Part shown: in pieces, positions 5,947-29,563 of the stretch
Layout of the letters: each line of letters opens with the position of its first letter
How positions within the stretch are numbered: position 1 is the first letter of the stretch
Source: Candidatus Zixiibacteriota bacterium
GTDB taxonomy: Bacteria; Zixibacteria; MSB-5A5; GN15; JAAZOE01
Direction: 5' to 3'
Length of the DNA: 42,720 nucleotides
Assembly (NCBI GenBank): GCA_043819555.1
Contig: JBDREQ010000072.1
Span: forward strand, 1-42,720
Translations under genes and position numbers: made by a program
The notes under the pieces: model-generated
The model's input: the letters and a program-made list of their open reading frames with translations, nothing else
The model's database searches: none
Told to the model about the DNA's origin: nothing

Positions 5947-8900
5947 CTATTTCAATAAAATCATTTTCTTTATTTCTTTAAGTTCTTTTGAATCAAAACG
6001 ATACAGGTAAATCCCCGACGATACTGGATGCCCGCGAGTATTTTTGCCATCCCAGATCAGTTCGTGATATCCTGCGGGATATTGTTCATCGGCCAAAACT
6101 CGGATTAATTGACCTACTATATTATAGATATCCAATCTTACATGACCCTGTTGTCCTATTGTAAATCCAATAGTTGTCGCCGGATTAAAGGGATTGGGGT
6201 AATTCTGTTCCAGATTGTATATCATGGGGAGGTTTTCTTCGTTGCCGGCGATTGACGGATTAAGATATGCAACGGGAAAGCAAATTTCGCCTTCAAACTC
6301 AGTTTCAATTTGATTTCCATTATAATCCAAAAACCCAAAAGATCCTGCGCTTGAGATCGAATCAAAGCATATCGTTTTAACTTCATCGCCCACAACTCCA
6401 CCCGGAATAAAATTGACCGCAAATTGATATTGAGGGAAACCCGGTGGAAGTCCGCCATTAATCGAATTCACTGACGATGCCGAGAAGCCGAAGTCGTCTG
6501 AATCAAGCCCATCGATATCATTTTCAGTAACGATTAAACCACTCGATATCGGCCAGACAATTTCATGATCTTCCATTCTGCTTTTTTCAATCAGGGTCAC
6601 AGCATTGGTAAGCGGTCCCAAGCCATCCGATTGAGCATCATATATCCAAGAGACCCCATCGGGGGAATAAATCTCTATTCCAAATTGAATGCCCCCAATT
6701 TTCGCGGGATTTTCGATGCCAATTAATAATTGATAGCTTCGGTCGGAACCATCGACATATATAGTATCATTATCGCCCAGGATTTTGTCATCGGCTTTAT
6801 CATAAATGGCCAGACTTACCGAATTAAATGCCGCTTGCACCGAATTCAGTTTTACTAAAGGCATATAAACAAATTCGCTGTTTCCGTTGATAATTTTGTT
6901 GTCCATTAAATCTGTTTTAAGCGGGCCGGTGCGAATGCGCCAGTCAAGTCCGAATTCACCCATATTCCCGACTTTAGCGGTATCAAATATTATACTTGAT
7001 GAGCGCGACCAAATCGTATCAATATCAATCGCGGTGTCATCATAGCTGAAGTAGGCAGTGAAATAATCATGCCGGCCTGAGTCAAGATAAGTACTGTTGA
7101 AAAATATAAATCCGGCATACAGATAAGAACTGTCGTTTGAAGCAAAAGTTGTTTTGTAATCGGTGGCGGTCAGGGGCAAATGCATCACAATCGAATCGCA
7201 GTTTATCCAGTTTTCCGACCATTTAAAACCGGTCCCCCCGGCGCCGACGGCCGAATCATTATATATTTGTGAAGTGACCGAAAAACCTTCAGGCGAACCA
7301 TCCCAAAAACCGCCTGAAATTTGAATTGTATCGGCATCGCCGGGATCATTGTCATCGCGGCCAACGTCATAAACGGTGATGACAATCACTTCCGAATCGA
7401 CATCATAACTATCGCGGGCATAAAAAATGACAGTTATTAGTTGAGATCCAGATTCAACTTGATTGAAATCGGGAGAAAATTCAAAAATCGCGGCTCCGTT
7501 TCCAAAATCGACAAATGACGCGTTTCCGTTAAAAATGGAATCGTCAAGTTTCGGTGACATTGATAACGACGGGATTATCTCTTCGGCATCACTTCCGGTA
7601 ATTTGTATCTCCAGCTTCCGGCCCTCATAAACAAAATGACCTCCGATCTCATCAAGCACCGGAGGGAAATCTCCTTCATTAACGGTTATCGTAACCGTTA
7701 GCTTACTGGAAGCATAATCCGGCGACCCATCTATACTATCGGTGGCAAGGAATTCAACATCATAAATACCAGCCTGAGTCGGCCCCGGAATGAACGTAAA
7801 TTCTCCGGTCGATTCATCAAATGTGCTATTGGGCAGAGTATCCAGCATGAACAAATGTACATCGGCCCCCTCCGGGTCAGAGGCCGAAACTGTAAAATTG
7901 AGAATTTCCCCTTCAGCGACCGCTTGCGAATCTAACGGAATAAATTCAGGCTGCTGGTTGCCAATCTCAGTAACCGTTATTCCGACGATAGCCGTATCCG
8001 TAAATAATCCATCGTAGGCCATAAAATATACGTTATAAGTTCCGGCCTGAGTATAATCGGGGCGGAACCTATATATGGCCGTATCGCCTCCATCATATAT
8101 AAAATCACTGTTGGTTGGCATTGAATCTGCGGACAGTACAACTCCAATACTGTTAGGGTCAGTTGCAACGACAAAAAAGGTCAGAGTATCATTTTCGGGA
8201 ATCTCTTTATCAGTTATTGGCTCAATCACGGGCGGCTCATTAGGACCAATAACCGTTATCACTGCAGTTTCCGAGACAATCTCGATTCCATCGCTGGCGT
8301 AGAACGTCACTGCAGTATCGGCCGAGCCGGTTCCATATTGGGTTTCGTCCGGAGTAAAGGAAAATAACCCGGTTCCATCGCCGTTATCTATAAATGAAGA
8401 ATTATTTGGAAGCGGCAACGATGTTGTAATAGATGGAAATGTCCCATCAGGATCGGAAGTCGTCACTGTAAAGGACAGATCGGTGCGCTCAACTACTGTT
8501 TTTGGCTCAATTGGTTCAATTGATGGAGTTTGATTTCCCGCGTCAATGACTGTTATACGTACGACAGCCGAATCGGTGTTATCCGGGTCATAGGCATAAA
8601 ACCAAACATCATATTCTCCGGCCTGCGTGTAATCGGGAGCGAATTCAAACGTTCCCCTGCCATTGTGACTGGTAGGAAAAATCGCGTTTTCGGGTAAATA
8701 TGCAGCACTTATCGAAGGAAGATCACCATCGGGGTCCGTGGCAGTAACGTCGAATATCAGACTATCTCCTTCAACGACCGATGTATCCGGTATGGGGTCA
8801 AGAATCGGAGAAGGATTGGAATCAAGAACCGTAATCGTCACATTAAAAGAATCCTGATCGGTTCCATCGTGGGCATAAAACGTAATAGGATAATCTCTAT

Positions 8901-9192
8901 CGTTATCATATCCTGTTGAAAATGTAAATGATCCCATGCCATTACCGCTATCGACAAAAAAGGCATTGCCCTTGAACATAGGATCAAGATCCGAGGGCGA
9001 CGTCCAGAGATTGATAACGTCTCCAGTGTCAGTATCGGTTGATTCAATTTTCCAAACCAACTCTGTCGTTTCAATAATCGTCGTATCGCTAATCGGAGTT
9101 ATAACCGGCGGATTATTTTGAGCCGTGGCAATTGCCGGGATTGAAAAAAGGGCGATGACGAAAACAGCAATTTTAAAAAATTTCCAACTCAT
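5947..9192 (-). CDS. Secreted protein: six cadherin/Ig-like repeats, a cohesin-like domain, shared domain X, and a C-terminal FlgD-Ig/T9SS-A-type domain
   Basis: Signal peptide ending ATA-Q; six N-x-x-P-x-(I/L)-x-P-I…F-x-P-D-x-x-Q-A-G repeats; C-terminus LEQNYPNPFNP…WDG…SGIYLYR…KKMILLK. ORF open from 9207. Confidence 0.85.
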   Translation of the reverse strand: MSWKFFKIAVFVIALFSIPAIATAQNNPPVITPISDTTIIETTELVWKIESTDTDTGDVINLWTSPSDLDPMFKGNAFFVDSGNGMGSFTFSTGYDNDRDYPITFYAHDGTDQDSFNVTITVLDSNPSPILDPIPDTSVVEGDSLIFDVTATDPDGDLPSISAAYLPENAIFPTSHNGRGTFEFAPDYTQAGEYDVWFYAYDPDNTDSAVVRITVIDAGNQTPSIEPIEPKTVVERTDLSFTVTTSDPDGTFPSITTSLPLPNNSSFIDNGDGTGLFSFTPDETQYGTGSADTAVTFYASDGIEIVSETAVITVIGPNEPPVIEPITDKEIPENDTLTFFVVATDPNSIGVVLSADSMPTNSDFIYDGGDTAIYRFRPDYTQAGTYNVYFMAYDGLFTDTAIVGITVTEIGNQQPEFIPLDSQAVAEGEILNFTVSASDPEGADVHLFMLDTLPNSTFDESTGEFTFIPGPTQAGIYDVEFLATDSIDGSPDYASSKLTVTITVNEGDFPPVLDEIGGHFVYEGRKLEIQITGSDAEEIIPSLSMSPKLDDSIFNGNASFVDFGNGAAIFEFSPDFNQVESGSQLITVIFYARDSYDVDSEVIVITVYDVGRDDNDPGDADTIQISGGFWDGSPEGFSVTSQIYNDSAVGAGGTGFKWSENWINCDSIVMHLPLTATDYKTTFASNDSSYLYAGFIFFNSTYLDSGRHDYFTAYFSYDDTAIDIDTIWSRSSSIIFDTAKVGNMGEFGLDWRIRTGPLKTDLMDNKIINGNSEFVYMPLVKLNSVQAAFNSVSLAIYDKADDKILGDNDTIYVDGSDRSYQLLIGIENPAKIGGIQFGIEIYSPDGVSWIYDAQSDGLGPLTNAVTLIEKSRMEDHEIVWPISSGLIVTENDIDGLDSDDFGFSASSVNSINGGLPPGFPQYQFAVNFIPGGVVGDEVKTICFDSISSAGSFGFLDYNGNQIETEFEGEICFPVAYLNPSIAGNEENLPMIYNLEQNYPNPFNPATTIGFTIGQQGHVRLDIYNIVGQLIRVLADEQYPAGYHELIWDGKNTRGHPVSSGIYLYRFDSKELKEIKKMILLK

Positions 9193-9333
9193 ATTTTCAA
9201 GAACCAAACATCCGTTTACTCAAATTAACCTATTCCGGAGTATAGTCAATAGTATTATACAATATTCGCCAATCAAGGATTAATATTGTAACATCTGATG
9301 CAAAATTGATTGAACTGTCTCCAATCATACCAT

Positions 9334-9366
9334 AAAAAAAGCCCTCTCAAATATGGGAGGGCTTTT
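9334..9366 (-). terminator. Intrinsic terminator after the 319-aa gene
   Basis: Minus strand AAAAGCCCTCCC-ATATTT-GAGAGGGCTTTTTTT. Confidence 0.8.
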
Positions 9367-9384
9367 GAAAAAAATCATGAAAAC

Positions 9385-10344
9385 TTATCGCATCAAAACC
9401 ATTTTACGGGTTTCGACATATTCATCGGTAACCATTTTGTAAAAATAAATACCGGATGCGACTTCGTGACCGCTGTCATCATCGCCGTGCCATTCGATAA
9501 AATGGTTGCCGGCTTCAATTTCGCCACTGACCAGCGTATTTACTCTCTGACCAAGAATATTGAATACAGCAATATCAACCTGGCTCTTTCGGGCCAGTGA
9601 ATAATCAATACCGGTCACCGGGTTAAACGGGTTGGGATAATTCTGCTCCAGGCCGTATGTGTAAGCGATGGCGGGGTTATCACCTGCCGCTTGGCTCGCA
9701 GATTGTTCAACCATTACATTAATAGCGCCGCTAAATGCTGCAGCAATACCTCCACCACCCAGATCTACAAAAGTCCAGTCTCCGCTGGCGCCAATCTTGG
9801 AAGAATCAATAGTAAAATCAACAGCATTTCCCGGAACATCAAGAGAGAAGTTAAAATTGAACATATGTTCCATGGGGCCCACAATGAGACCGTTCCATAA
9901 GGCCACTCCGCCCAGAATAATTGAATCCGGAGCGATAGAATCAACATCTTGCTCGGTAACATAAAGACCTGTCATATCAAATGAACCCGTTGTGCCTGAT
10001 TCCGGCTTAAAACGGCTGGCACCCTCCACGGTAATGGCCCAGTCATCCTGACCGCCTGCTCCCCATCCGCCAGTTTGCGGTTCCCAGTTGACATTTATAG
10101 CAGCATCGCCTTTGAAAACCAAACCGAGGGACATGCCGCCCAGTATCACATCATTTTCAAGCGACATTTCAACTCGATACATTATAGGGTTGCCATCACC
10201 ATCCTGGGCGTAAATAGTTGAGCCATTGGTTTCATAGACACCGTCGGTAACATTATACAATGCGACAGCAACCGAATCAGCCGCCTGTGAAACGCCAAAT
10301 GACATTAACAAAACGGTTAAAAACGTTAACATTAAAATTCTCAT
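9385..10344 (-). CDS. Secreted protein: single domain X (divergent cohesin-like) plus C-terminal FlgD-Ig/T9SS-A-type domain
   Basis: Signal peptide ending SQA-A; GGAGG RBS; LEQNYPNPFNP…SGIYFYK…RKMVLMR. Confidence 0.85.
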   Translation of the reverse strand: MRILMLTFLTVLLMSFGVSQAADSVAVALYNVTDGVYETNGSTIYAQDGDGNPIMYRVEMSLENDVILGGMSLGLVFKGDAAINVNWEPQTGGWGAGGQDDWAITVEGASRFKPESGTTGSFDMTGLYVTEQDVDSIAPDSIILGGVALWNGLIVGPMEHMFNFNFSLDVPGNAVDFTIDSSKIGASGDWTFVDLGGGGIAAAFSGAINVMVEQSASQAAGDNPAIAYTYGLEQNYPNPFNPVTGIDYSLARKSQVDIAVFNILGQRVNTLVSGEIEAGNHFIEWHGDDDSGHEVASGIYFYKMVTDEYVETRKMVLMR

Positions 10345-10459
10345 ACGCTCATGCCTCCATGCGCATTCTTTTTTGCGCTCATTGTTTTAAATTCTTAATT
10401 ACTTTCCATTTTGCTTTTTCTCATACTTAAGGACGCATGTGAAAAAGATACGTCAAATG

Positions 10460-10487
10460 AAAGTACGAAAAAATCTGTGCCAGTCAA
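10460..10487 (-). promoter_or_regulatory. Possible sigma70-type promoter for the 319-aa gene
   Basis: TTGACT-N16-TACTTT, with the same upstream T-tract context as the promoter at 5677. Confidence 0.4.
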
Positions 10488-10699: not shown

Positions 10700-10707
10700 A
10701 TTCTGTT

Positions 10708-13700
10708 TTAATTATTAATCGGAGGCGGCCCCTGCTTGAAGATAAAGTTCACCAGATAAAGGGCGTCACCGATATTGACAATGGGACCATCGACACCATC
10801 GTTGTTTACATCAGCGGCTTCCATGACAACCGGAGCGGCTCCCTGCTTGAAGACAAAATTGACAATAAAGATAGCATCGGCAATATTGACCGTTTCGTCA
10901 TTATTCGCGTCGCCTCGCAGGAAGGTTGCTACCCGGGTCCATTTTAATAATGTATCCGTCAAGCCAGCAGGATCCTCGACAACGTATCGGAACAGGTGCA
11001 TTGCGCCATTTTGCGAGGCATCGGGAGTAAATGTCAAACTCGCCGCGCCGTTGCCCGAATCGACCAGAACCGAATTAGGCGGAGGATTTATCATCCAGAA
11101 AAATATTGGATCAAGATCAGGATCGATAGCCAGTATGTGGTATTCGATTGACTCTCCCAATATTACCGTCATCGTATCAGTCGGAGAAGTAAAGATTGGC
11201 GCCTGGTTACCGGCTTCCTGAACAGTTATCGACACATATTCTGAATCGGCCAAACCATCCTTGAGAGCAATAAAGAGAACATTATAGGTTCCCGCCTGAA
11301 CATAATTAGGCGTAAATCGGAATGTTTTGGGCATGCCGGCAGAGAATAAGATTTCCGAGTTCGTCGGATTATTCTGGACAATTATATCTGCGTTCCCGCC
11401 GCCGGGATTAGTTGCTGTTATTAAAACATCCAGAGTCTCACCTTCAACGACCGTCTGAGGGCCGATAGGTTCGAGAATCGGAGCAACGGGTACATTTGTA
11501 ACTGTGAAGTTTATCGGTCCAAATATTCCAAAGTCATCAGGGTAACTCGGATCATTGTCATAAGCCGCAAATATTAAAGCGTAGATTCCGGCCTGGGTAT
11601 AATTCGGCGTCAATGTCAGAGTCGCGGTACCGTTTCCATTATCGACAAAATTAAAGTTGGCCGTACTTTGTACCATTACCATTCGCGGCGGTATGCCATC
11701 GGGGTCAAAACCAGACAGATTATATACCAGAGTACCGCCTTCGGCCACCGTCTTAGTTTGACCCGGCGGAATCTCAAGAAGGTAAGGCAATCGGTTGACA
11801 TCATTAATTACGATTTGAATGATAACGCTATCTATCATAGTTCCGTCGTCGGCGTCGGTCGCATAGAACGTTAAATCATAAGTTCCCGCATCGGTATACG
11901 AAGTTATCCATTCAAATCTGCCCGTATAATTGCCATTGTCTACGAAAGTGGCTGTACCCGGCAGAGTCGAAGTAGATAATATCGGTACAACCAAATCAAG
12001 ATCGGAACAGGTAACATCAAATCTGATTGTCGCGTTTTCATTGACGGTAATACTGGAAATTGGATCTAAAACCGGCATTTGATTACCGGCATCATCTACA
12101 ATAATAGTAACTAATTGCGAATCGGCCAATTCTCCATCGCTGGCGATAACCAGGATATCATAAATGCCTGACTGAGTATAACCCGGCATCCAGGAGAAAT
12201 TGGCAGTGCCGTCGCCGTTGTCGGAAAACGTTGCACCGCTGGGAAGCTGCTCGGCGGTCAGGGTCGGAATTGTTTCATCGGGATCAAGAACGCTAACTGC
12301 AAAGACTAGTTCAATCGCCTCGGTCACATTTTGTGCCGGGATAGGATCCAGAATCGGAGCCTGATTTCCCGCTTCAAGGACCTGAATTAAAACATTTACT
12401 CTATCAATATCAAAACCGTCACTGGCCCGTAATACTATTCCATAAAGCCCCGCCATCACGAAAGTTGGCGAGAATGTAAAGGTCCCGGTTCCGTCGAGAT
12501 TATCAATAAATGATGAGCTATCCGTTAAATCATCGGCGGATAAGATCGGAATACCACCATCCGGATCGGAAGCCGACACCATTAATACTAAGGTCTGACC
12601 TTCCGGAATCATCTGCGGCATAATGTCCGCGAATTCAGGCGGAGCATTCCCGGATACTACAGTAATCTCGACATCAATCGAAGCCGACATCGGTGAGGGT
12701 GAATCGTCTATAGCTATGAATCTGACGGTAAGAACGCCGGCCTGGCTATTATTCGGAGTAAATCTGAAAAGACCGGTATTATCGCCCTGATCCACGAAGG
12801 TCGCGTTATTGGGAATACCGGACGCGGTCAGGAAAACTTGACCGGAACCATCGGTGGTGGAATCGGACGCGGTTACTGTAAATTCAAGAGTTCTGCCGAC
12901 GCTGACTCCAAAGGGACCGATCGGCTCGATCGATGGAGGCTGATTTATTTCAATCGTAATTATTTCAACTAAGGCAATATCAGAAAGCTGAGGACTGCCA
13001 TCATCAGTAGCATAAATACGAATGGTATCCACGCCGGCCGAATTAAAATCAGGAGCGTACATAAATACGCCTGTTCCATTGAGGTTGTCAGTCAAGGTAA
13101 TCCCTGTCATAGGCTGATTAGATGTGTAGCTGAATACTACGTTATGCCCATCAGGGTCGGTGGCAGACAGAGGAATAATCAAAGTATCATTTTCGTTGAC
13201 CGCCCGCGGACTGATAATCGGATCCAGCACAGGCGCCTGATTGCCCAGCTCCGTTACCGAGACCAATACAAATTCGCTATCGGCCAGAACACCATCGCTG
13301 ATTATGAATGTAACACCATACACTCCCGCCTGAGTAAAATCAGGGGTGAAATCAAATATGCCGGTTCCGTCAAGATTGTCATTGAAAGTCGAATTAACGG
13401 GTAGATTTATGACCGTGAAAGTTGGAATGGTTCCATCGGGATCAACTGCCGTGATCAGAACATTCAGGTTGGTGCCTTCGGTAACAAATAGAGGCCCAAT
13501 CGCATTCAGCACTGGAGCTTGATTACCGGCATCCGCTACATTTATCGTCACCAGTTGAGAAACCGATTCAGAACCATCGTCGGCAAAGAACGTTATATCG
13601 AAACTGCCGGCCTGATCAAACGCAGGCGTGAAGTCAAAGATACCGGTCAAAGCTTCAAAGGTAGCGTTCGGCGGCAAGGCTGATGTCGATAATGTCGGCG

Positions 13701-19608: not shown

Positions 19609-19615
19609 ACCTGAA

Positions 19616-22135
19616 CTACTTCAACAGTACCATTTTCTTGGTTTGGTTATTATCTCCCACTCGTAGTCGGTAGAGATAGACACCGGAGGCCGACATATCG
19701 CCGCCATTATCGGTACCGTCCCAGACAACAGTATGCATACCGGGTGGAAGTGGTTCATTTACCAGGGTTTTCACGGATTGGCCGAGAATATTGAAGACGT
19801 CGAGTCTTACCGTCTCGGCTCCTCCAGAGGAACCATCTATATAAAAGTCTATATAAGTTGTTGGATTAAACGGATTGGGCCGGTTCTGATACAGCGAAAA
19901 TTTATCCGGCAGAATTGGATCAGGATTTATTCCCTCAACATCGATGCCTTTGGCCGCTCCGGTGCTTATTACCGCGCGAGTAATTCGAACCTGCGAATTG
20001 TCATCAGCCCTGATCGGCGCCCTGGATACAAACGGCAGGGCCAGAATATCTGACAAACCTTCAGCAATTAACTCATCTTCATTCCAGGGGTGACGACTAT
20101 GGAGGAGAACCTTCATCTTTCCCGCGCCATTATCTTTGGTATATATCTGAAATTCGCCGCTGGCGTCGGTCAATATTGGCTTAAGCATTTCGATCGTATT
20201 GGGATTATAAGAAATTTCGAGTTCCACACCGGCGATATCTGCAGGTAAATCGGCCTCAAGGGCCATTTCCGATTGTACTCCGGCGCTGGTAATCTCATCA
20301 TGAAGTACTTGAAGCGACGCGAATTCTCCCGGAGGAACAGGCGGAGCAAGATCCGGAGAAATGGGAAGAAGGAAAATCGCATTGATGATACCGACCAGAT
20401 CAATTACGTTCACGGAATCATTTATCACAACATCCGCCGCGGCAAATTGTCTGCGCGTCAAATTATAATTTTCGATAATAAAGGCAACGACGCTGACAAG
20501 GTCGGCCACGTTTATATTTTTATCTAAATTAACGTCACCCCAGTAATCAACACACATCGAACCGGAATCGGTCACCATCTCAAGCCCGGCAACATTTGGA
20601 TCGGGATCTATCGACTCCCAGGCATTGTAGATATCAATGGGATAGCATCCCGGAGAAGCGAACTGGTCAACCGTGAAGGCCAGGTTTAGAATTGCCGAGG
20701 AAGAACCGGGAACCATCGGGTCGTTAGCCAATCCGAAAACGACCACCCGCACCTCTCCCGGAGTCTCGTTTATATTTTCATATATTACCCAATCGGGGAT
20801 ACGATTAGTTGCAAATATCGAATCGAGATCAAAATAATTGTAGTCGTAATTCAGATCAAACTGAACACCGTAAATTGTCTTTTCGGTTACAACATTAATC
20901 GGCACCATAACTTCATTCAGGCCAGGAACGCCGCCTTCCTGGAAAAGGTCTTCGGCAGATGAGGTAAACAGTATATCTTCATCGATTCCCTCGACAAATA
21001 CCGAAACAAATTGCGCCCCGGATGTAGCTCCGGAATCATCGGTTGCCTGAAACTTGAATGAGAAACTTCCAACTTGATCCAGGTCAGGCTTAAAAGAGAA
21101 CAGACCGGTTGCGACACCGCCTGCGCCTGTGACAACTCCATTAATTCCAAAATGCGCGTTGGGAGTCGTCAGGCTTCCATCATTGGCGCGAATTGTAACG
21201 ACTCCGGATTGGGCATCGGTAGCCGTAACGTTAAAGCTGACCTGTCCGCCGGCCATAATATTGTATGTAGTGGGCGAAATTGTCGAAAGTACAGGGGGAT
21301 TATTTTTGTCCGGATCGGGAGGAGGTTGAGTAGTATCTACAACGGCCGTATCGACTATAAAGACAGAGCTGAGCAAATTTTGAGGATACACCGATACTGT
21401 CTGTGCATCAGGAGCGCCGGGAGGATCATGCCATTCCTCAGCAAATTCAGTGCTCTTATATGTTTGAGGAATATTTCTCGTAGTATGTAAGAATGATTGA
21501 TCGTTAATCTGTGCCGCCGGATTTACTCTGAATTTTATATATCCGATAATTACGCCAAGAGTATCACCCGAATAAACCAGACCGCCGGGAATATGGGGCC
21601 TGACATAGCCGGAAGTATTTTGTGCGTAGGCTGAATCCACCCAGTTCGGAGCCATCAGAAGACGAACGCTATCACGGGCATTAAGACTATAATAGACCGA
21701 TTTGATAGCCCAGGTTGGATGACTGATACCCGTATATTGTGGTGGATTCACCCAGCCAAAATTCTTGATCTGGTTTGAAATGATAAGATCCAATTCCCAA
21801 AGACCGGGATCATAAGCGGGAGTCGCTTGAAATTCAGTCGAATCAGGCGGAGTATAGGTCGGATCAATATCAGCCGAATCCAGAAGTTTTTGATAATCGG
21901 CATTGAAAGCGATAATCGGATGCAGAATATTATGGTCGAACTGGAACAAAAAACTTATTCCACTGACGGTCGAATCGTTTTGAAGATAAATCGGAATCGA
22001 AACGATACTATCCGGTAATCCATATTCGACTTTCAAAAATCCGATACTCTCGTCCGTCAAAATCTGACCCCGGGCAAGCCCGGCGGAAATTCCGATTAAC
22101 AGACATATCAGTAGTGGTATGATCAAACGCCTCAT
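19616..22135 (-). CDS. Secreted protein: cohesin-like, Pro-rich linker, Ig-like, cohesin, dockerin, cohesin-like, FlgD-Ig/T9SS-A-type C-terminus
   Basis: Cohesin-like VPINV…GVQFDLNYD and IAGVELEISYNP; dockerin GDVNLDKNINVADLV…ADVVINDSVNVIDLV; C-terminal QNRPNPFNP…TKKMVLLK; GAGG RBS. Confidence 0.85.
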   Translation of the reverse strand: MRRLIIPLLICLLIGISAGLARGQILTDESIGFLKVEYGLPDSIVSIPIYLQNDSTVSGISFLFQFDHNILHPIIAFNADYQKLLDSADIDPTYTPPDSTEFQATPAYDPGLWELDLIISNQIKNFGWVNPPQYTGISHPTWAIKSVYYSLNARDSVRLLMAPNWVDSAYAQNTSGYVRPHIPGGLVYSGDTLGVIIGYIKFRVNPAAQINDQSFLHTTRNIPQTYKSTEFAEEWHDPPGAPDAQTVSVYPQNLLSSVFIVDTAVVDTTQPPPDPDKNNPPVLSTISPTTYNIMAGGQVSFNVTATDAQSGVVTIRANDGSLTTPNAHFGINGVVTGAGGVATGLFSFKPDLDQVGSFSFKFQATDDSGATSGAQFVSVFVEGIDEDILFTSSAEDLFQEGGVPGLNEVMVPINVVTEKTIYGVQFDLNYDYNYFDLDSIFATNRIPDWVIYENINETPGEVRVVVFGLANDPMVPGSSSAILNLAFTVDQFASPGCYPIDIYNAWESIDPDPNVAGLEMVTDSGSMCVDYWGDVNLDKNINVADLVSVVAFIIENYNLTRRQFAAADVVINDSVNVIDLVGIINAIFLLPISPDLAPPVPPGEFASLQVLHDEITSAGVQSEMALEADLPADIAGVELEISYNPNTIEMLKPILTDASGEFQIYTKDNGAGKMKVLLHSRHPWNEDELIAEGLSDILALPFVSRAPIRADDNSQVRITRAVISTGAAKGIDVEGINPDPILPDKFSLYQNRPNPFNPTTYIDFYIDGSSGGAETVRLDVFNILGQSVKTLVNEPLPPGMHTVVWDGTDNGGDMSASGVYLYRLRVGDNNQTKKMVLLK

Positions 22136-22172: not shown

Positions 22173-24572
22173 TTATTTCAACAGCACCATTTTCTTAGAG
22201 GCCGAATTATCTTCCGTTTTTATCCGGTACAAATAAACTCCGGAAGCGACAGCGCGGCCTTGTGCATCTGTGCCGTCCCATATAACCTCATGTTGTCCGG
22301 CTGGATATTCTCCGTCGCTCAAAACCTTTACTGTCTGCCCCAGGATATTGAAGACCGTTAATGTCACCCGGGCAGGTTCATTTAGATTGAACCGTATATT
22401 CGTTTCCGGGTTAAACGGATTTGGGGCATTCTGGAATAACTCAAATTGCGACGGCATTACGCCGGTATTGGTTTTTTCTATTTGTAAAATTTCCCCATTA
22501 ATATTCGCTATTTCTATATTCTCAATCTGAAGATTCAAATCTGGTGAATCTGAAATTTTTATTATAGATTGCGAACCCGAATTGATCGTTGTACCGGTAT
22601 AGCTCATCAACAATCCATTCCAGCCATTCTGTTTCGTTCCGGACATCATATCCATTTCTGTCATGTTCATCGGAGCGAGATTTCCGGCATCTTCTCCGGT
22701 CAGGCGGACAAAGACGCCGCCGACTTCGTCCGGAGAATCAATATTCAAATAAGTTCCCGTCTCTTCGTGTGTTATTTCTGCCCTAACAGGATATGATTGC
22801 GTTGTTGGCCTGGCGGTCGGAGGATTGGTCTCTCCGGTAATGATAGTTATCAATAAAACCAAATCTGCGACCGAAGGGGCATAACCGTCGCGATTGATGT
22901 CGGAATTGAGTATTTGTTGCTCGTTCATCGGGTACTGGGTCGGACTGATAAAGAAATTCGAAAAATATACCGCATCACTGATTTCATAGGCGATATTATT
23001 GAGATTGATATCTCCCAGCATTTGGACGCCCGAGGCCGCGATCAGGACATAACCGTCAAAAAGATTAATATCGTTGGCATAAATAATACTGCCATCATCA
23101 AGTACCAAAGCATTATCGGTTGAAAACATCTGGATAAACCGCACCGGTATGTGCTGACCAACGAAATTTAGATCGGAACTGATCTGCACAGTCATCGTAA
23201 AGATCGGACCCTCGCCGCTTTCAATCGGACTGCCCATCCCGGCCTTACCCGAGATCCGGACATTGCCGTTTATGCCGTTCTCGTTGATGCGGTAATCAAA
23301 AATATGAAGATTTTCCGATCGGGTTCCGGTGCTGGTTATGCCCAGAGGAATCAAAACCGAAGGGTCCATTCGGATAAGAAGATTATATTCGCGAATAACG
23401 AATTTATTCTTCAGGTAAACATTAAGGTCAACCGACCGGCCCGAAAAACTAGTCACGGTATCAATCCTGATGCCATATAATGTAACCGGCACAAGCTCAA
23501 TTTCGATGACCGCGGTATCGGGCAGGCTATAAGGATCATGAGCAATCAGCGTAATTTGATAATGGCCCGAATCCGAAAAATCACTCGGCCAGCTTATCAG
23601 CCCGGGATTTTCAAAATCAAAAGAAGCCCCGTCGGGCAGTACTGAGATTTCCCATTCAATATTTTCAAAGTCGGGATCAAAAGCCGATACATTGATTCCC
23701 AGCGAATCTCCGGCTTCGGCCATGACCTCTTCCGGAGCGCTGATTATGGGGGCTCGGTTGACATTTATTACGTTTATCTTAACGCGGATATAGCTTGATG
23801 ATTTTCCATCGGAAGTCCAGAAAACAAAATAGAATGGTGATAAATCGGCTGATAGCGGGCCGATATAATCGGGGCGCCAGGCAAACTGAGCCGTCCCGTC
23901 GCCGTTATCGACAAATTCGGAATTAAATGGATGAATCGGATTGACGATTAGAACTTCATCGCCATCGGAATCAATAACCTGCAGGTCAATATAAAGAGAA
24001 TCTCCCTCTGCAACATACACGTCGGGAACCGGCGTGAATATCGGCGGGCGATTTTGCTCACCGATTTGTACTTCCCCAGGAATAAACGCGGGAGTGAAAT
24101 TATTCAACCCACTGGCGTCGGATAGCAATAATTGACCTGCAGGCGGTAAAAACGTTGTATCAATGATTATTATTTCCCCGGGAATCAAATCATCTTTGGC
24201 TCTGAAATTTATTTTACAAATCGATCCGGAACCGGGCTGGATGTATTCTTCCATGATAACCACGGCGCCGATCAAAATTGTGCCGGTGGTTTCGCTGACT
24301 GTCACCGGCAGCATATTGAGGTATTCAATCCGACTTCCGGCAAAATCAACTTCCTGAAATTCAAGTTTATCTATGGGATATATGAGCGGTAAAGTAATTG
24401 CCCCCAATTCTTCATCGTTCCAGACATTGACGGTAACGCTGAAATTTCCTCCGGCTGGCACCGTATATTGGCCAATTGAAATTGTGTCGGTTTCGCCAAT
24501 TGGATCATTCTGGGCCAATACCGAGCCGAAGAGAAGAATCAAAACTATGTATGTCAGTGCAAATCTTTTCAT
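22173..24572 (-). CDS. Secreted protein: cohesin-like, two Ig-like, cohesin-like, dockerin, spacer domain, FlgD-Ig/T9SS-A-type C-terminus
   Basis: Signal peptide ending VLA-Q; dockerin GDINLNNIAYEISDAV…SDINRDGYAPSVADLV; C-terminal QNAPNPFNP…SKKMVLLK. Confidence 0.85.
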   Translation of the reverse strand: MKRFALTYIVLILLFGSVLAQNDPIGETDTISIGQYTVPAGGNFSVTVNVWNDEELGAITLPLIYPIDKLEFQEVDFAGSRIEYLNMLPVTVSETTGTILIGAVVIMEEYIQPGSGSICKINFRAKDDLIPGEIIIIDTTFLPPAGQLLLSDASGLNNFTPAFIPGEVQIGEQNRPPIFTPVPDVYVAEGDSLYIDLQVIDSDGDEVLIVNPIHPFNSEFVDNGDGTAQFAWRPDYIGPLSADLSPFYFVFWTSDGKSSSYIRVKINVINVNRAPIISAPEEVMAEAGDSLGINVSAFDPDFENIEWEISVLPDGASFDFENPGLISWPSDFSDSGHYQITLIAHDPYSLPDTAVIEIELVPVTLYGIRIDTVTSFSGRSVDLNVYLKNKFVIREYNLLIRMDPSVLIPLGITSTGTRSENLHIFDYRINENGINGNVRISGKAGMGSPIESGEGPIFTMTVQISSDLNFVGQHIPVRFIQMFSTDNALVLDDGSIIYANDINLFDGYVLIAASGVQMLGDINLNNIAYEISDAVYFSNFFISPTQYPMNEQQILNSDINRDGYAPSVADLVLLITIITGETNPPTARPTTQSYPVRAEITHEETGTYLNIDSPDEVGGVFVRLTGEDAGNLAPMNMTEMDMMSGTKQNGWNGLLMSYTGTTINSGSQSIIKISDSPDLNLQIENIEIANINGEILQIEKTNTGVMPSQFELFQNAPNPFNPETNIRFNLNEPARVTLTVFNILGQTVKVLSDGEYPAGQHEVIWDGTDAQGRAVASGVYLYRIKTEDNSASKKMVLLK

Positions 24573-25082
24573 CAAATGCCCAAATTTAAATGCTATACAA
24601 CTCCAGTCTCTATAAGAGCAAAAGGCTTACCAATCCCGGATAAGTCTCAAATTACCCTTAATAATTCTCATATATTTTTGCGATATGGTGCAAAACTCAG
24701 GCAATTATCAATACTTCCGACTATCGCAAAAAAAACCTAACCTTTTCGTTCCCAGTTCGTTATACCTATTAATCCAAAAACGCTTATCTCTCCCCAGACC
24801 AAAAAAACAGAGGCCCGAAATTGTAACTTTGTGAGGCATTAAATCCGTATGGCGAGTAATTGACAATCTTTACAATACAATCTGCACTATTTTGCAGCAT
24901 ATTGAAGACAGATGACGAGTAAAATCCGATTTTTAAAAAACGAAAAGCCCGCAAGCTATTGTCAGTTGGTATGTTAAGCTCTTTGTCGGGCATATGCTTA
25001 TTCCTTATTTCTCGGTCATGTCAATTCTTCATTATCTCGTACTCTATAAACCAACCTCCCTATTTTCTTATTCTTTAATTTA

Positions 25083-25111
25083 GTGATAAGGGTCACGAAG
25101 ACCCTTACCAC
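25083..25111 (-). terminator. 12-bp stem-loop 3' of the 906-aa ORF (no U-tract; stabiliser or weak terminator)
   Basis: Minus strand GTGGTAAGGGTC-TTCGT-GACCCTTATCAC. Confidence 0.55.
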
Positions 25112-25128
25112 CAAATTATAAAAACTGA

Positions 25129-27828
25129 TTACTTCATCAGTACCATTTTCATAGTAGCTGAGTTAGCACCAGCAGTTACCTTGTAGAAATAGATACCGGA
25201 AGCAACGGACTTGCCGCTGGCATCTTTGGCATCCCAAACAACATTCACGGTTCCAGCTTCGCTGAATCCGTTAAATGTGTTCACACGCTGACCGGCAATG
25301 TTGTAAATCTCTACGGACCAATCTGAAGCATTGTTCAGATTGAAGCCCATGGTTGTGGTCGGGTTGAACGGGTTCGGGTAGTTCTGAGCGACGCTGAAGT
25401 TTGACGGAAGCGCATGGAAGCTGCTTTCCATCATGCTGCCGTTATAATCGGAAGCTTCAACGCTGATCAATTCGGCGTTACCATTGACCGGAATGGTCAT
25501 CAGATCGCCGGAAGTGATTGCTTCGGAACCAATGTTATAAACCAGGACACGGAGTTCGTTGTTCTCAAAGCTTGAGACGACGTCCATGTTGTTGTGCAGG
25601 ACCGGAGTACCGGCATCGCCTGTAACGTTAAAGACGAACAGGGCGGCGCCAGCGTCAACGCCGGTTTCCACACTAACATTCATGTTACCATTGACAAGCT
25701 GAGTTTTAACATCGAACAAAGTACCCGGAGCCGGCTTCGTGGCATACGGAAGCGCATCACCAATGATGACACGAACCAGATACACGAGGTCGGCGATGGT
25801 CAGGGCAGTACCGTCGGCATTCACATCGGAAGCCGCGATAGAACCGTCAACATGGACACCAAAGGCCGAAAGGCCAGTGATGAAATAGTTCGTGAACATA
25901 ACCGCATCAGCGATTTCATTCGCCAAACCGTTCATGTTGATGTCGCCGCGATCATCGATTTTATCCTTATCGATAATATCAATTCCGCCATTGAAGAAAT
26001 CAATAAAGCGAATCGGGGCGCCTTTATCGGTTCTGGTTTCACAGGCAACCGGAGCGCCGTACATGCCCGGGAAACCCCAGTTTCTATCCGTGACTTCAAT
26101 GTAGCTATCCCCACCGTCCATGCCATAGTAGTTATAGACGAAACGGGAGATAGCCAGAGAGTCACCGGAAGCGACCGAGATTACGTTGTCACCGCAGTCC
26201 ATCCAGAAGAAACTGACGTGGGCAAAGTAATCGTTGTAATTCACGTTAGTCGAGACAAAGAATGTCAGATTGACGAGAATTTGGCCATCACCGAGATTTA
26301 TAATACATTCATCATCAGGATGGACCGGGCCATTGTTAGTTTCGGCCATAGCGACAACACGAATTTCGCCGGAAGGACAGCCATTACCGCAATTGCCGTG
26401 TGAGCCATAGCGATAAGTGAAGTATTCCCATCCGCAATCCTGGAAGAATTGACCCAGTGATGCTTCAGTGAAGGTCAAAACGGTCGGGTCATAAGCCAAC
26501 AGGAAGTCAAAGCCGCCCATTTCTTCTGAACCCTTTTTCAGCCAAATCGGAAGATCAACATAGTGACCCTGAATGACATCATGAAGTTTATCAATAACCA
26601 CCTCATACGGTGTGGTTAATAATACATCGACTTCGAATGTACATTCAACCGGATCAGCAATACCGTCGCTGACGCTTACGGTTATCATATGAGAACCAAT
26701 GTCCTCAAAAGCGGTCGTCCAGGTGAATTCACCCGTGCCGGCATTAATAGCCATATCACCGATAGGCGGAGAAACCAAGGCATAAATCAATCCATCACAG
26801 CCATCGGCATCGGAACCAACAATATCATCCTTTATAATCATGGATGTAAAGCCGACCGGATTGTAGGCTAATCCACAATTGATAGTCGGGATTTTGTTGG
26901 TGACCGTCACTGCGATCTCATATGATGCACAATCGCCATTGGCGGCATCGCCAGCTGTAACAGTAATAGTTACGGCTGAACCAACATCGGCCGCCGCACC
27001 GGTATATGATACCGAACAGCTGCTGCCGAGATCAGTTACGACCGCGGCGCCGGCGCCGGTAGTACCACCCAGCTTAAAGTTGATTTCGTTGCCTTCTGCG
27101 TCGTAGCCATTCAGAGTGACACTTTTGCTGCCGCAATGGTCAACTGTCATTGATAGACCGGGAGCTGTAGTAAATGTCGGACAGAAATTACGCGCGTTTG
27201 TAACCGGTATGCATAATGCGCCTTCACCATCATTCCATCCAACTATCGGAGGAAAGGTCGCGCCGGTAGCATCGATGAAAATAAACGGGGCCGATTCGGA
27301 AACCTGAACACTGTCGATACACAGAGTTTTAACTTCTGCCGGATCAGATGTTCCGCCCGGGATACCATGCAATTGGTACATTTCCTCCAATGGTCCTGGG
27401 GGCAGTCCGGCTCCCATTGCAACACCACCGGCCAGTATTCTGTCCGGCAAGGTATTGTCAACGTCGGCATAAGTAATCAGCAAACCAGTCATATCCCAGA
27501 CGCCTTTAGGGTCTAAAATAGTCGGCGGCCACATGCGGGTATTGGAAAGCATTGTAATATAGAATTCTGAAGCCGGATCTGGTTTTCTATTACCAACGTT
27601 ATTCCAGGTCCAGGTAGCGCCATCCGGAGAAGTGATTTCAAATCCCAGAGTAATTCCGCCGAGATTTTGCGAGTTTTCAAGCGCTATGCCAAACTCAGCA
27701 GCAACACCGGCCCAAAGAGTATCGGAACCGGAGTGAGTGTGGACAATAATGTCACACAAATCCTGCTGGCCGTAAGTAAGCCCAAAAGAAAGAAGCAATG
27801 TTGCGAGCAAAACGATTAGTCGTTTCAT
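25129..27828 (-). CDS. Secreted Cys-rich protein: domain X, two Ig-like, cohesin, dockerin, spacer, FlgD-Ig/T9SS-A-type C-terminus
   Basis: AAGGAG RBS before ATG 27828 (ORF open from 27849); cohesin-like VDLPIWL…MGGFDFLLAYDPTVLTF; dockerin RGDINMNGLANEIADAV…SDVNADGTALTIADLVYL; C-terminal QNYPNPFNP…MKMVLMK. Confidence 0.87.
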   Translation of the reverse strand: MKRLIVLLATLLLSFGLTYGQQDLCDIIVHTHSGSDTLWAGVAAEFGIALENSQNLGGITLGFEITSPDGATWTWNNVGNRKPDPASEFYITMLSNTRMWPPTILDPKGVWDMTGLLITYADVDNTLPDRILAGGVAMGAGLPPGPLEEMYQLHGIPGGTSDPAEVKTLCIDSVQVSESAPFIFIDATGATFPPIVGWNDGEGALCIPVTNARNFCPTFTTAPGLSMTVDHCGSKSVTLNGYDAEGNEINFKLGGTTGAGAAVVTDLGSSCSVSYTGAAADVGSAVTITVTAGDAANGDCASYEIAVTVTNKIPTINCGLAYNPVGFTSMIIKDDIVGSDADGCDGLIYALVSPPIGDMAINAGTGEFTWTTAFEDIGSHMITVSVSDGIADPVECTFEVDVLLTTPYEVVIDKLHDVIQGHYVDLPIWLKKGSEEMGGFDFLLAYDPTVLTFTEASLGQFFQDCGWEYFTYRYGSHGNCGNGCPSGEIRVVAMAETNNGPVHPDDECIINLGDGQILVNLTFFVSTNVNYNDYFAHVSFFWMDCGDNVISVASGDSLAISRFVYNYYGMDGGDSYIEVTDRNWGFPGMYGAPVACETRTDKGAPIRFIDFFNGGIDIIDKDKIDDRGDINMNGLANEIADAVMFTNYFITGLSAFGVHVDGSIAASDVNADGTALTIADLVYLVRVIIGDALPYATKPAPGTLFDVKTQLVNGNMNVSVETGVDAGAALFVFNVTGDAGTPVLHNNMDVVSSFENNELRVLVYNIGSEAITSGDLMTIPVNGNAELISVEASDYNGSMMESSFHALPSNFSVAQNYPNPFNPTTTMGFNLNNASDWSVEIYNIAGQRVNTFNGFSEAGTVNVVWDAKDASGKSVASGIYFYKVTAGANSATMKMVLMK

Positions 27829-28070
27829 TATGTGCTCCTTCATTACCAAAGTTCATGTTTTAGCAAAACGTAATATTACAAGTAACGAGTTGCCACATAG
27901 TCCCCCTCATACAAACCATCCCAAATTCCGATGAGCCGTCCGGAAATTTTGTTCTGGTAAGTGAGTAGAAATGAGCTAAAAAGCCATTTCTTTCTTTTGA
28001 GCGCGTGTCATACAAATCCTCTTATGCGCGCGTCACCTCCTTTCAAAATGTTCCACTTAAGGTTAGTAGT

Positions 28071-28091
28071 AATCTCTCGTTTCGAGAGACT
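28071..28091 (-). other. Stem-loop between the 372-aa and 906-aa ORFs
   Basis: Minus strand AGTCTCTCG-AAA-CGAGAGATT, with no U-tract. Confidence 0.5.
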
Positions 28092-28147
28092 TTCTATTTT
28101 TATTTGACTTATTCTCATTTATGCCTTCAGTTAAGTATGCGCCCCAA

Positions 28148-29239
28148 TTAGTTGCAAATAGGATCCGGTCCGCCCTTAAACACCGTGTTGATTCCATAAA
28201 CAACATCACCGACATTCAAAAATGGATCGCCGTTGGTACCGCCACAATCGGTTACCGGAGGCGGTCCATATTTAAATATGTGATTGATCAAATAAACCGG
28301 GTCTCCAATATTAAAGAAAGTATCCCCGTTGGCATCACCGCAAAGACAATCGGCAAAATTGACCGTCACGTCGCCGTCATCATAAAAACAGGTCGACTCG
28401 TTGCGCACCGTCCACGGGATAGAGTCAATCGACGTCGAATCGGCAAAAATGGCTGAATCGGGATTGGTCGTATTGATCCAATCAAGACAATCGGACCCGT
28501 TCCAATCCTGACAAATCCAGTAGCGATAAAAAGTATCGCACACCAGAACTTCATCGATCCAGGTCGAGTCGCAAATAGTATAATTCGTAATTACTCCAAA
28601 CAAATCTCCATGCGGATCGGAAAACATCGTCTCGCTCAGGTTGTCAATTATCAAAAGCCCGACAACATTGTCGGAGCTGTCGATTACCTCGGATTTGGCC
28701 CGCATTCGCAATCGAAACAAAACTCCCGGGTTCGTTCGCGGGGCTACACCGGGAACGTAGGGCTGGCCGATAGCGTCGGCGATAGCCGTAACTTTGATAT
28801 CCGTGCGGTTTTCGGAAACCGATCTGGCGGTCACATATTCCCATCCCGAAATCAAACATCCCGCAGTATCAAGCGCCCCGGAATTGACAATTGTATCGAT
28901 GATTAGAGTATCCCTCCAATCAACGCACGTGCCCTGATCCCACTCGGCACAATACTGCGTTGTCGTTCGATAACTGGTATCAACCGCATCCGTCCTGAAA
29001 TCAACCAGGTCCGGATTATTCAAAACTATTTTGATCGTAAACGCGGCCAATGTCTCCTGGTAATTAGTGAACCAAACGCTGACCCACCCGGTTGTATCAC
29101 CGGCGGCGACAGTTGTGTCACTTAACGCCAGATAAATCTCAGGCATCTGCGCCTGGGATGATTCTGTTGAAAACACCATAACCGCCATTAGAACGGCTAC
29201 GGCGAGCAATAAAAAACGCGACTGGCAAGTGAAGGACAT
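28148..29239 (-). CDS. Secreted protein: cohesin-like domain with Cys/Trp insertions plus C-terminal dockerin
   Basis: AAGGAG RBS before ATG 29239 (ORF open from 29266); signal peptide ending SQA-Q; C-terminus CGDANGDTFFNIGDPVYLINHIFKYGPPP…NVGDVVYGINTVFKGGPDPIC. Confidence 0.8.
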   Translation of the reverse strand: MSFTCQSRFLLLAVAVLMAVMVFSTESSQAQMPEIYLALSDTTVAAGDTTGWVSVWFTNYQETLAAFTIKIVLNNPDLVDFRTDAVDTSYRTTTQYCAEWDQGTCVDWRDTLIIDTIVNSGALDTAGCLISGWEYVTARSVSENRTDIKVTAIADAIGQPYVPGVAPRTNPGVLFRLRMRAKSEVIDSSDNVVGLLIIDNLSETMFSDPHGDLFGVITNYTICDSTWIDEVLVCDTFYRYWICQDWNGSDCLDWINTTNPDSAIFADSTSIDSIPWTVRNESTCFYDDGDVTVNFADCLCGDANGDTFFNIGDPVYLINHIFKYGPPPVTDCGGTNGDPFLNVGDVVYGINTVFKGGPDPICN

Positions 29240-29534
29240 TCTCAACTCCTTCCGAACAGTTTTCATATGTTTACTGACAACTTCCGTTACCTATATCAGT
29301 CGCTCACCTCCGCGCTTGTTCATTTCCCCGCGACTATCATTCTGTTATAGTGCGGCTACGAACCAAGCCTTTGACTGGTAACTCGAATCAGGCTGTATCT
29401 TTGACAAACCCAACACTGAGGTATCATGAAATTTACTTTTTTAATTTCTCAGGCTCTTTATCAACTTTGGATAGGAGACTATCACCTGCTAATGTCTAAG
29501 ATCAACGTGTAGAAAATGTCGTATCATCGTGTCT

Positions 29535-29563
29535 AATATAAGCCACAGCTGGAAAGTTGTCAA
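29535..29563 (-). promoter_or_regulatory. Near-consensus sigma70 promoter heading the cohesin-dockerin cluster
   Basis: TTGACA-N17-TATATT on the minus strand. Confidence 0.7.

Follow-up and report, generated by a model that had tools for sequence, protein, structure and literature searches.

What does a cluster of exported proteins assembled from cohesins and dockerins, the connecting modules of cellulosomes, do in a diderm bacterium when none of its members shows a recognisable enzyme? The question is raised by a locus at positions 5947-29266 of contig JBDREQ010000072.1 from a Candidatus Zixiibacteriota genome (3.35 Mb, 97% complete), referred to here as the source genome; the whole analysed stretch of 42,720 nucleotides is called the window. 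The locus consists of seven open reading frames (ORFs), all on the minus strand and named A to G in reading order, and a hydropathy heuristic finds a basic and hydrophobic, signal-like N-terminus in all seven products, in line with the seven co-oriented signal-peptide proteins of the initial annotation, which had been made from the DNA sequence alone. Our results suggest that Zixibacteria share, throughout the phylum, a display system of cohesins and dockerins onto which dockerin-tagged cargo would be docked, and that the locus encodes its conserved core of scaffolds and adaptors, a reading that we judge somewhat more probable than improbable. They also provide comparative evidence from sequences that a terminal dockerin may serve as a surface-sorting tag, interchangeable with the C-terminal type IX secretion system (T9SS) tail and with IPTL-CTERM.

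Dockerin-tagged proteins across the source genome

Searches of the source genome returned 61 Pfam dockerin matches and, with our own hidden Markov model (HMM), 75 dockerin proteins, of which all 70 encoded outside the window were scanned for further domains. A near-uniform dockerin with two similar repeats, termed class A, ends 59 proteins including A and E; the other 57 are encoded elsewhere, and a self-contained system is not supported. A distinct class-B dockerin is present in seven proteins, including B and C, and six of these seven carry a tail. Cohesin-like domains number 41 in 31 proteins, 17 of which have a tail, and a tailed four-cohesin protein is encoded away from the locus (C20:56800-60600).

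Peptidases account for 18 of the 70 outside dockerin proteins, 16 being recognised by Pfam domains and two by NCBIfam metalloprotease cut-offs. They belong to families S8 (four), M28 (five), C10 (two), M6 (two), M14, M1 and M43, together with a trypsin-like and an MXAN_6640-type enzyme, and the catalytic motifs are intact, as judged by pattern, in most of those checked. Propeller-type matches were found in 15 of the 70. In the seven locus proteins, Pfam and NCBIfam scans gave no catalytic family above cut-off, as first claimed, and a PepX_C match in E is repeat-driven and non-catalytic. The description of the assembly as enzyme-free therefore fits the locus itself and fails for the system, with its 18 peptidases among the dockerin proteins encoded elsewhere. 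No glycoside hydrolase (GH) match was obtained for any of the 70 outside dockerin proteins (Pfam, E<=1e-5) or the five inside the window (E<=0.01), many of the carriers having unannotated parts, and to that extent the exclusion of a role in polysaccharide breakdown holds. Carbohydrate-binding module (CBM) families were likewise absent from Pfam scans of the seven locus proteins and the other cohesin proteins scanned. Two sets of weak matches were set aside: M36-family NCBIfam matches in the locus proteins lie over immunoglobulin-like (Ig) repeats or the tail, far under cut-off, and a CbhB match on a dockerin carrier (22.6 bits against a cut-off of 1950) falls outside its N-terminal unknown domain.

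In an alignment of 60 class-A dockerins, the calcium-binding (Ca) loop positions read D60/N57/D58/N54/D60, with conservation of 54-60/60 in repeat 1 and 46-58/60 in repeat 2. The helix positions V56, N52, F53 and K48 (plus R7) are common to both repeats, despite unrelated carriers, and cysteines are frequent (44/60 at one position). By analogy with cellulosomes, so uniform a module on carriers that are otherwise unrelated suggests that class-A dockerins have a single type of receptor in common.

Cohesin and dockerin folds in the locus

In total, the locus encodes five dockerins and twelve cohesin-like domains, of which nine are full-size and three reduced. Cohesin-like domains are present in six of the seven proteins, with E as the exception, and B, C, D and G have two full-size domains each, which makes them non-catalytic multi-cohesin proteins. 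Two slices passed the Pfam Cohesin model, C 24-172 (34.8 bits) and D 390-529 (38.1 bits), and two domains were examined as AlphaFold2 models. In the model of B (128 sequences; predicted local distance difference test, pLDDT, 89.9), which also contains a cadherin-like Ig pair, the cohesin at residues 383-598 of the model numbering matches the type I structure 5nrk_A with a Z score of 15.6 and a root-mean-square deviation (rmsd) of 2.2 Å over 141 aligned residues. The cohesin of A (41 sequences; pLDDT 82.7) matches the type I structure 6kgc_A (Z 16.4, rmsd 2.3 Å, 142 aligned). For these two modelled domains and the two Pfam slices, the expectation that the cohesin-like segments fold as cohesins is borne out. 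It may be added that the cohesin of A (28352-29149) has two Cys-rich beta-hairpin inserts, which are variable in length and missing in several families.

The remaining five full-size domains are putative cohesins, assigned by our own HMMs and by hhalign profiles, which gave 93-98% against other cohesin profiles and about 2% or less for Ig controls. The N-terminal domain of B, found also in F and G, reaches 95-98% against cohesin profiles; the F cohesin matches the HMM of this domain at E 5e-29, and the cohesin-like domains of G were found by our own cohesin HMMs. By the same comparison, the X module of D appears to be a reduced cohesin (98%), and that of B is linked to cohesins through the D X module alone (96.7%). 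A Foldseek search with the whole B model returned multi-Ig matches only, with low TM scores, and in VIA-align of the same model the N-terminal and X domains had no separate top rows, the other domains filling the list.

Dockerins are present in A to E, terminal in A and E and internal in B, C and D, so that the initial counts of five proteins with duplicated Ca-loops and of cohesin-like segments in most proteins both stand. As slices, only those of D (25.0 bits) and E (33.8 bits) pass the Pfam Dockerin_1 cut-off. The dockerin models of A (Z 9.5, rmsd 1.8 Å) and B (Z 10.1, rmsd 1.9 Å) match 4fl4_A, the A profile matches PDB dockerins at E 1e-9, and the C dockerin was identified by our own HMM. 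An uncontrolled complex prediction for the first C cohesin, an M28 peptidase dockerin and two Ca ions scored 0.19 against a mark of 0.32 and counts neither way.

T9SS tails and secretion machinery

Five of the seven proteins score above the TIGR04183 cut-off of 23 bits (B 46.2, C 43.1, F 38.8, D 27.8 and G 27.3), in agreement with the five C-terminal domains that had been read as T9SS type. T9SS genes were also found elsewhere in the genome, namely SprA (TIGR04189, 601.6 bits against a cut-off of 200), PorU (NF033707, 622.6 against 420) and the PorV family (NF033709, 231.3 against 90; NF033710, 170.8 against 250 and so under cut-off), with five PorV-family matches, two of them above cut-off. 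Across the phylum, SprA was detected in 151/151 genomes, 149 of them above cut-off. GldN and GldM (GldM_1st) were not found in the source genome by searches in which no control genome passed the cut-off, and GldK and GldL were not searched for. The genome also has two secretin operons of the type II secretion system (T2SS)/type IV pilus type, and IPTL-CTERM was not found in it by a search with no working control.

At L083:3854-14003 (G000:C25) lies a T9SS attachment cluster. It encodes PorU, a tailed M6-like protein that is inactivated, and a protein of 896 aa that resembles PorZ weakly and has a C-terminal PorV-family barrel; near the cluster, a gene of 1108 aa has a weak match to the SprA model.

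Exchange of terminal tags and joint loss of dockerins and cohesins

Orthologous enzymes of the phylum differ in how they end. Close orthologues of an M14 carboxypeptidase were detected in 89 of the 151 genomes; 42 loci were fetched, and by a quick tree 39 of them form an orthologous group (54-100% identity). Among these 39, a dockerin is the terminal module in 19, a T9SS tail in 2 and IPTL-CTERM (TIGR04174 above cut-off) in 3, while 15 are not readable to the end; three distant M14 paralogues are tail-ended. Relatives of the M28 peptidases, selected on the catalytic part alone (n = 120), comprise 96 with a dockerin, 7 with a tail and 17 with neither, PF00404 missing divergent dockerins and many of the 17 ending in dockerin-like sequence. 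The source genome itself holds both dockerin-ended and tail-ended paralogues in the M6, M28, S8, propeller and unknown families. One M6 pair, a dockerin-ended and a tail-ended protein, is 39.6% identical over 805 columns. Proteins of about 850-980 aa that have a 400-aa domain in common make up a further, unnamed family, with three dockerin-ended copies and five with a divergent tail.

Some details of these families may be recorded here. The IPTL-CTERM signals lie in Zixibacteria family f14, at L149, L151 and L153 (G078, G129 and G079). Loci of the unnamed family are L066:1-2856, L027:5140-10980, L039, L035:7637-10234 and L076:1-2562, and an Atlas search with an unknown domain of three dockerin cargo proteins returned hypothetical clusters only. 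At L072:1-1440 (G000:C68:12195-13634) and L011:8862-11177, class-A dockerins end proteins whose match is to the N-terminal half of another scaffold, either B (32% over 416 columns) or the four-cohesin protein. The cohesin-dockerin-X-tail cassette of B may itself be a swappable terminal tag, since it occupies the position of a simple dockerin tag in a paralogue.

Loss of the system was observed in three genomes of 94-96% completeness (G065, G089 and G114), which have no class-A dockerin, 0, 0 and 1 cohesins, no B cassette and no D match. Their tails number 122, 139 and at least 150, respectively, compared with 45 in the source genome and 48 in its sister genome; their M14 enzymes are tail-ended, and so are four long M28 enzymes fetched from G089 and G114. 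Two other genomes, G104 and G137, lack B and D matches, yet they have 34 and 38 dockerins together with small signal-cohesin-tail proteins. Because these small proteins are kept, the minimal partner of the dockerin seems to be a cohesin on a tail, with the five-gene core as its usual, not obligatory form.

Conservation of the core across the phylum

Dockerins are present in 149 of the 151 phylum genomes, the B cassette in 145 and a D match (E<=1e-40) in 127, with one match each except in one genome. Gene neighbourhoods were read in 23 genomes of 15 families, selected for a D match on a long contig. B lies upstream of D in 22/22 loci with enough DNA, and an A-like gene precedes B in 20/22. The slot before D is occupied by a C-like gene in 18 of the 23, by two or three small tailed genes (mostly cohesin-tail) in 2, and is empty in 3. 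A giant Ig-repeat gene follows D in all 17 genomes with downstream DNA and ends in a dockerin in 13 of the 14 in which its end is visible. F and G are not kept as such: varied dockerin or cohesin-tail genes take the end of the cluster, and G was not found as such in other loci. A related-locus search of genome contigs gave five matches, all to the tail only. The gene set had been expected to be conserved as a unit, and this holds for the order A-B-C-D-E and the promoter across 15 families; for all seven genes it is rejected, given that F and G vary. The 2.1-Mb genome G037 has, upstream of the core (L113:5014-8633), a tandem array of four genes for cohesin-dockerin proteins of about 290 aa that resemble adaptors.

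Promoter, B-C gap and transcription

The near-consensus promoter described upstream of the seven genes (29563-29535) is the best of 19 sites detected, where 14.4 +/- 4.1 are expected by chance at the loose threshold used. It is not a chance match, since identical hexamers with a spacer of 16/17 precede 19 of 20 A orthologues, and the 300-nt leader of A shows no conservation beyond the promoter. The gap between B and C (24576-25128) measures 553 nt and contains hairpins and a sigma54-like site. In a relaxed form, the palindrome TGCA-N6-TGCA was found in 16 of 23 B-downstream regions against 0.8 expected from shuffles, the pattern being derived from these same sequences; the sigma54-like site, searched with the sigma54 consensus, was found in 5/23 loci (families f1 and f5) against 0.4 expected. 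Taken with the hairpin that follows B, the length of this gap and the two motifs in it, the palindrome being conserved, suggest separate transcription of C-D-E, and the seven genes are probably not one transcript.

When read by eye, a hairpin follows the B stop in nearly all of the 23 loci, and past it the gap is rich in purines for a stretch, often with another hairpin, which has a long loop and a U tract, behind it (about 24995-24935). Upstream of dockerin, cohesin and tail genes of the source genome, both the palindrome (3/87 against 9/1210, p 0.04) and the sigma54-like site (5/87 against 14/1210, p 0.007) are weakly enriched. An RNA run holding 0.11 of the words gave eight short contigs, near-identical in sequence and of depth 2-6, on A, the A upstream region, the A-B gap, C, D/E and E; such contigs cannot rank genes and are not used as evidence, DNA carry-over being possible.

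Proposed mechanism and alternative explanations

For type A cargo of Bacteroidota, PorV recognises the tail in SprA and PorU attaches the protein to the surface (PMC10994853, PMC11205867). By analogy, tailed cohesin proteins of Zixibacteria would cross the outer membrane via SprA/PorV and be fixed to the surface by PorU, and a Ca2+-loaded terminal dockerin would plug cargo into their free cohesins, in which case it would work as a second-order surface-sorting tag. A would convert one specificity to another and E would project a long stalk, while the internal dockerins of B, C and D could, more speculatively, join scaffold units to one another as a second tier of specificity. A layer might result, and at this point the structural reading of the initial annotation would still have a place. 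Tail-less cargo might leave the cell on a cohesin-tail adaptor through the T9SS, or by T2SS or pilus-like machinery with docking outside, two routes that we rate about equal; the swap with IPTL-CTERM fits the T2SS-type route as well as the adaptor route. One version of the former, in which cargo hitchhikes by binding a signal-cohesin-tail adaptor in the periplasm, passes SprA with it and stays plugged in after PorU, is rather unlikely in our estimation, with F, the first cohesin of C or stand-alone relatives as candidate adaptors. If cargo did ride through SprA in this way, the definition of a T9SS substrate would change, one adaptor would export and anchor dozens of proteins, and the dockerin would be a folded, reversible new kind of C-terminal sorting tag.

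Several observations weigh against a display system built on this core. The core is not strictly required, as the single-contig genome G137 has 38 dockerins without a B or D match, and the genomes used for synteny were picked because they had a D match. A negative correlation between dockerins and tails per Mb, both counted as first-look candidates, is absent across the 151 genomes (Spearman 0.05, p 0.56); family medians give -0.28 (p 0.24), and the value is +0.30 within 137 tail-poor genomes. The tail-rich state (81-239 candidates against 27-98), on which a trade-off between dockerins and tails depends, is limited to four families and 14 genomes, maybe one lineage, and the three dockerin-free genomes represent only two families. 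The purpose of display is only partly known, since 37 of the 70 cargo proteins are neither peptidases nor propellers. Cohesin folds also lie directly before the dockerin inside cargo (C53:23586 in the source genome; several in G104), and some of them may therefore be spacers, not sockets. To our knowledge, the phylum Zixibacteria is uncultured.

The same modules could instead build a structural layer or fibre, with B, C and D polymerising in the manner of a surface layer (S-layer) through their cohesin-internal dockerin cassettes, E acting as an adhesin stalk, and enzyme docking secondary or absent. B, C and D each combine a cohesin, a dockerin and a tail, which makes head-to-tail chains possible, and the B cassette ends other large proteins too (7 matches in the source genome, besides its wide presence in the phylum). 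Also in favour are the hairpin after B in nearly all 23 regions and an NNC codon share of 0.46 in B against a 95th percentile of 0.42, a weak proxy with mixed controls, and T9SS-dependent S-layers exist in Tannerella (PMC11205867). We nevertheless regard this account as unlikely, for the dockerin class of A and E is common to the 57 outside proteins, 18 peptidases included, and dockerin cargo is lost together with the core and the cohesins in three genomes. A lattice would be compatible with cargo docking if it also carried free cohesins, and the scaffold itself may have a structural part to play, as a lattice or an adhesin.

A dedicated proteolytic complex, or 'peptidosome', similar to the postulated planctosome, would gain synergy from holding endo- and exopeptidases together. 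The 18 dockerin endo- and exopeptidases with mostly intact motifs, the lack of any GH match, the tailed four-cohesin protein and the exported peptidase ORFs assigned to Zixibacteria in sediments (PMC6365825) would suit such a complex. Peptidases are, however, just 18 of 70 cargo proteins, the locus scaffolds have two or three cohesin folds of differing subtypes in place of tandem identical ones, and the source genome also has members of these enzyme families that simply end in a T9SS tail, which means that membership of a complex is not needed for them. We consider the proposal quite improbable.

It is very doubtful that the terminal dockerin acts without these cohesins, being read by a PorV paralogue or a T2SS or binding the surface via Ca2+, with the cohesin folds as mere spacers. 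The five PorV-family matches and two secretin operons could supply readers, spacer-like cohesin folds do precede dockerins in cargo, and the hydrophobic strand pattern of the first C cohesin differs from the clostridial binding face; but cohesins and dockerins are lost together, and signal-cohesin-tail proteins persist in the three genomes checked that bear dockerins and have no B match (G104, G137 and G105), with use as sockets their only evident function. Finally, a canonical cellulosome is rejected in the absence of a dockerin-bearing GH and of CBM3, and a flagellar hook-cap role of the FlgD-like tails is rejected because TIGR04183 is matched above cut-off and a true FlgD is encoded elsewhere.

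If the locus is indeed the core of a cargo-docking display system, cohesin-dockerin assembly would no longer be confined to a few degraders of polysaccharides, as nearly every member of an uncultured phylum of diderms would have it, coupled to the T9SS. The 'dockerin type I' annotations in Zixibacteria likely mark surface proteins, and tag exchange gives many of them a testable meaning. Designer enzyme complexes might also profit, since new cohesin-dockerin pairs that recognise each other through a different face could provide orthogonal parts.

Feature coordinates and neighbouring genes

Table 1. Features of the cohesin-dockerin locus, in reading order on the minus strand.
Feature	Position	Strand	Length	Modules and remarks
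Promoter, sigma70-type	29535..29563	(-)		TTGACA-17-TATATT; ~300 nt upstream of gene A; 11/12 consensus matches
Gene A	28148..29266	(-)	372 aa	Likely start 29239; signal peptide, cohesin with two Cys-rich hairpin inserts (28352-29149), C-terminal class-A dockerin (28151-28345); adaptor-like, without T9SS tail or Pfam match
Gene B	25129..27849	(-)	906 aa	Likely start 27828; signal peptide, divergent cohesin (27196-27753), two cadherin-like Ig domains, cohesin (25972-26613), internal class-B dockerin (25741-25953), reduced cohesin-like X module (25408-25728), T9SS type A tail
Palindrome TGCA-N6-TGCA	24883..24896	(-)		In B-C gap; candidate regulator binding site
Sigma54-like -24/-12 site	24617..24632	(-)		Upstream of C
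Gene C	22173..24575	(-)	800 aa	Signal peptide, cohesin (24060-24506), two Ig domains, cohesin (23031-23483), class-B dockerin (22821-23033), X module, T9SS tail
Gene D	19616..22135	(-)	839 aa	Signal peptide, cohesin with inserts (21356-22039), Ig domain, cohesin (20549-20968), internal dockerin (20354-20545), cohesin-like X module (19928-20320), T9SS tail
Gene E	10708..19608	(-)	2966 aa	Signal peptide, ~30 tandem Ig/cadherin-like repeats (Big_9 and tandem-95; 30 repeat starts by motif count), C-terminal class-A dockerin (10711-10932); stalk or adhesin-like, without T9SS tail
Gene F	9385..10344	(-)	319 aa	Signal peptide, one divergent cohesin (9703-10272), T9SS tail; minimal cohesin-tail adaptor, variable slot
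Gene G	5947..9207	(-)	1086 aa	Signal peptide, ~six Ig repeats, two cohesin-like domains (6940-7350, 6265-6822), T9SS tail; variable slot

Directly downstream of the cluster lie a GH35/GH42-like gene (3392-5593) and a gamma-glutamyltransferase gene (1610-3328). In G034 and G088, too, the GH35-like gene comes after the cluster, but since it has neither signal peptide nor dockerin it probably does not belong to the system. Directly upstream of the promoter is a polysaccharide flippase gene (30171-31673), syntenic only in family f1, and in the intervening gap a small ORF of <100 aa is visible by eye at about 30110-29880. The low-GC gene at 31732-34683 encodes a KAP-family P-loop NTPase with weak QatA similarity (135 bits against a cut-off of 600), possibly a horizontally acquired defence gene. 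The isoleucyl-tRNA synthetase gene at 38363-41557 matches full-length MupA/MupB-like models best, yet far under their cut-offs, and is an ordinary housekeeping gene beside lspA. In the 90% clusters of this synthetase and of the SDR protein of the window, members carry the name candidate division Zixibacteria. An Rfam scan of the window gave no match.

Comparison with known systems

Clostridial and ruminococcal cellulosomes, such as those of A. cellulolyticus (ScaB/ScaC) and C. thermocellum (OlpA/OlpC), share with the Zixibacteria proteins type I-like cohesins, dockerins with duplicated Ca-loops, one dockerin class on enzymes with a second on scaffolds, and cohesin-dockerin adaptors. They differ in their monoderm hosts, where anchoring is by S-layer homology (SLH) domains or sortase, and in having CBM3 and dockerin-borne glycoside hydrolases, whereas here the host is diderm, the scaffolds have T9SS tails and no GH bears a dockerin. 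Internal dockerins between two cohesin folds, and many class-A dockerins with cysteines, also set Zixibacteria apart from cellulosomes. Where a cellulosome is defined by a multi-cohesin protein together with a dockerin-bearing GH (PMC11557425), the source genome has the former, and neither the latter nor a CBM3 on a scaffoldin was found in it.

The initial annotation knew of no characterised system of this kind, which is roughly right as regards experiments; two precedents proposed in silico do exist (PMC8542988, PMC6461901). Candidatus Stygibacter (Cloacimonadota; PMC8542988) also belongs to a candidate lineage within the Fibrobacteres-Chlorobi-Bacteroidetes (FCB) group, and an in silico proposal describes signal-peptide enzymes with C-terminal dockerins, including S8 and C25 peptidases, and a non-catalytic cohesin protein with a C-terminal surface-attachment domain. 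It differs in having one 3,755-aa scaffoldin with tandem cohesins and CBM2/CBM3, dockerin-tagged GH18 and GH57, and a distribution in one genus (PMC8542988), as compared with a five-gene core, two dockerin tiers, phylum-wide presence, about 70 cargo proteins, no GH or CBM match and tag exchange in Zixibacteria. The planctosome of freshwater Planctomycetes (Nemodlikiaceae; PMC6461901) is likewise a hypothetical diderm complex with an anchor, a cohesin-dockerin adaptor and M14/M12B peptidases; a lamin-tail anchor is proposed for it instead of a T9SS tail, the system is small and the phylum is another. The 18 dockerin-tagged peptidases and the surface-anchored cohesin proteins (17 of 31 tailed) in a diderm follow the pattern of both proposals, which are themselves in silico. 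In Chlorobium chlorochromatii, also an FCB diderm, the Cag_2037/Cag_2038 pair (bioRxiv 10.64898/2026.03.19.712371) includes an E-like Ig-repeat protein whose C-terminal dockerin is predicted to bind the neighbour's cohesin for surface display. It is a single pair exported by a type I secretion system (T1SS), with neither T9SS-tailed scaffolds nor genome-wide dockerin tagging.

C-terminal tags that send many unrelated proteins to the surface are established, GlyGly-CTERM and MYXO-CTERM acting via a T2SS-type route (10.1101/2023.06.07.544157). In the available text of the T9SS and sorting-signal literature (PMC10994853, PMC11205867, 10.1101/2023.06.07.544157), neither a dockerin as a T9SS-type tag nor tail-less cargo on a tailed adaptor was found, and a wider search by title and abstract start found no dockerin as a T9SS tag. 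A literature search for Zixibacteria with dockerins or with type IX secretion returned no paper, most subscription papers and supplements being outside its scope. The portions available of PMC6365825 and PMC4411801 treat the phylum only within surveys of exported peptidases and carbohydrate enzymes, those of a study of dockerin-type giant proteins in Omnitrophota (10.1101/2023.11.21.568195) do not mention it, and PMC4454575 mentions neither cellulosomes nor cohesins. Against this background, the Zixibacteria system would be a phylum-wide, T9SS-linked variant of the non-cellulosomal cohesin-dockerin systems, with comparative support for the dockerin as a putative sorting tag.

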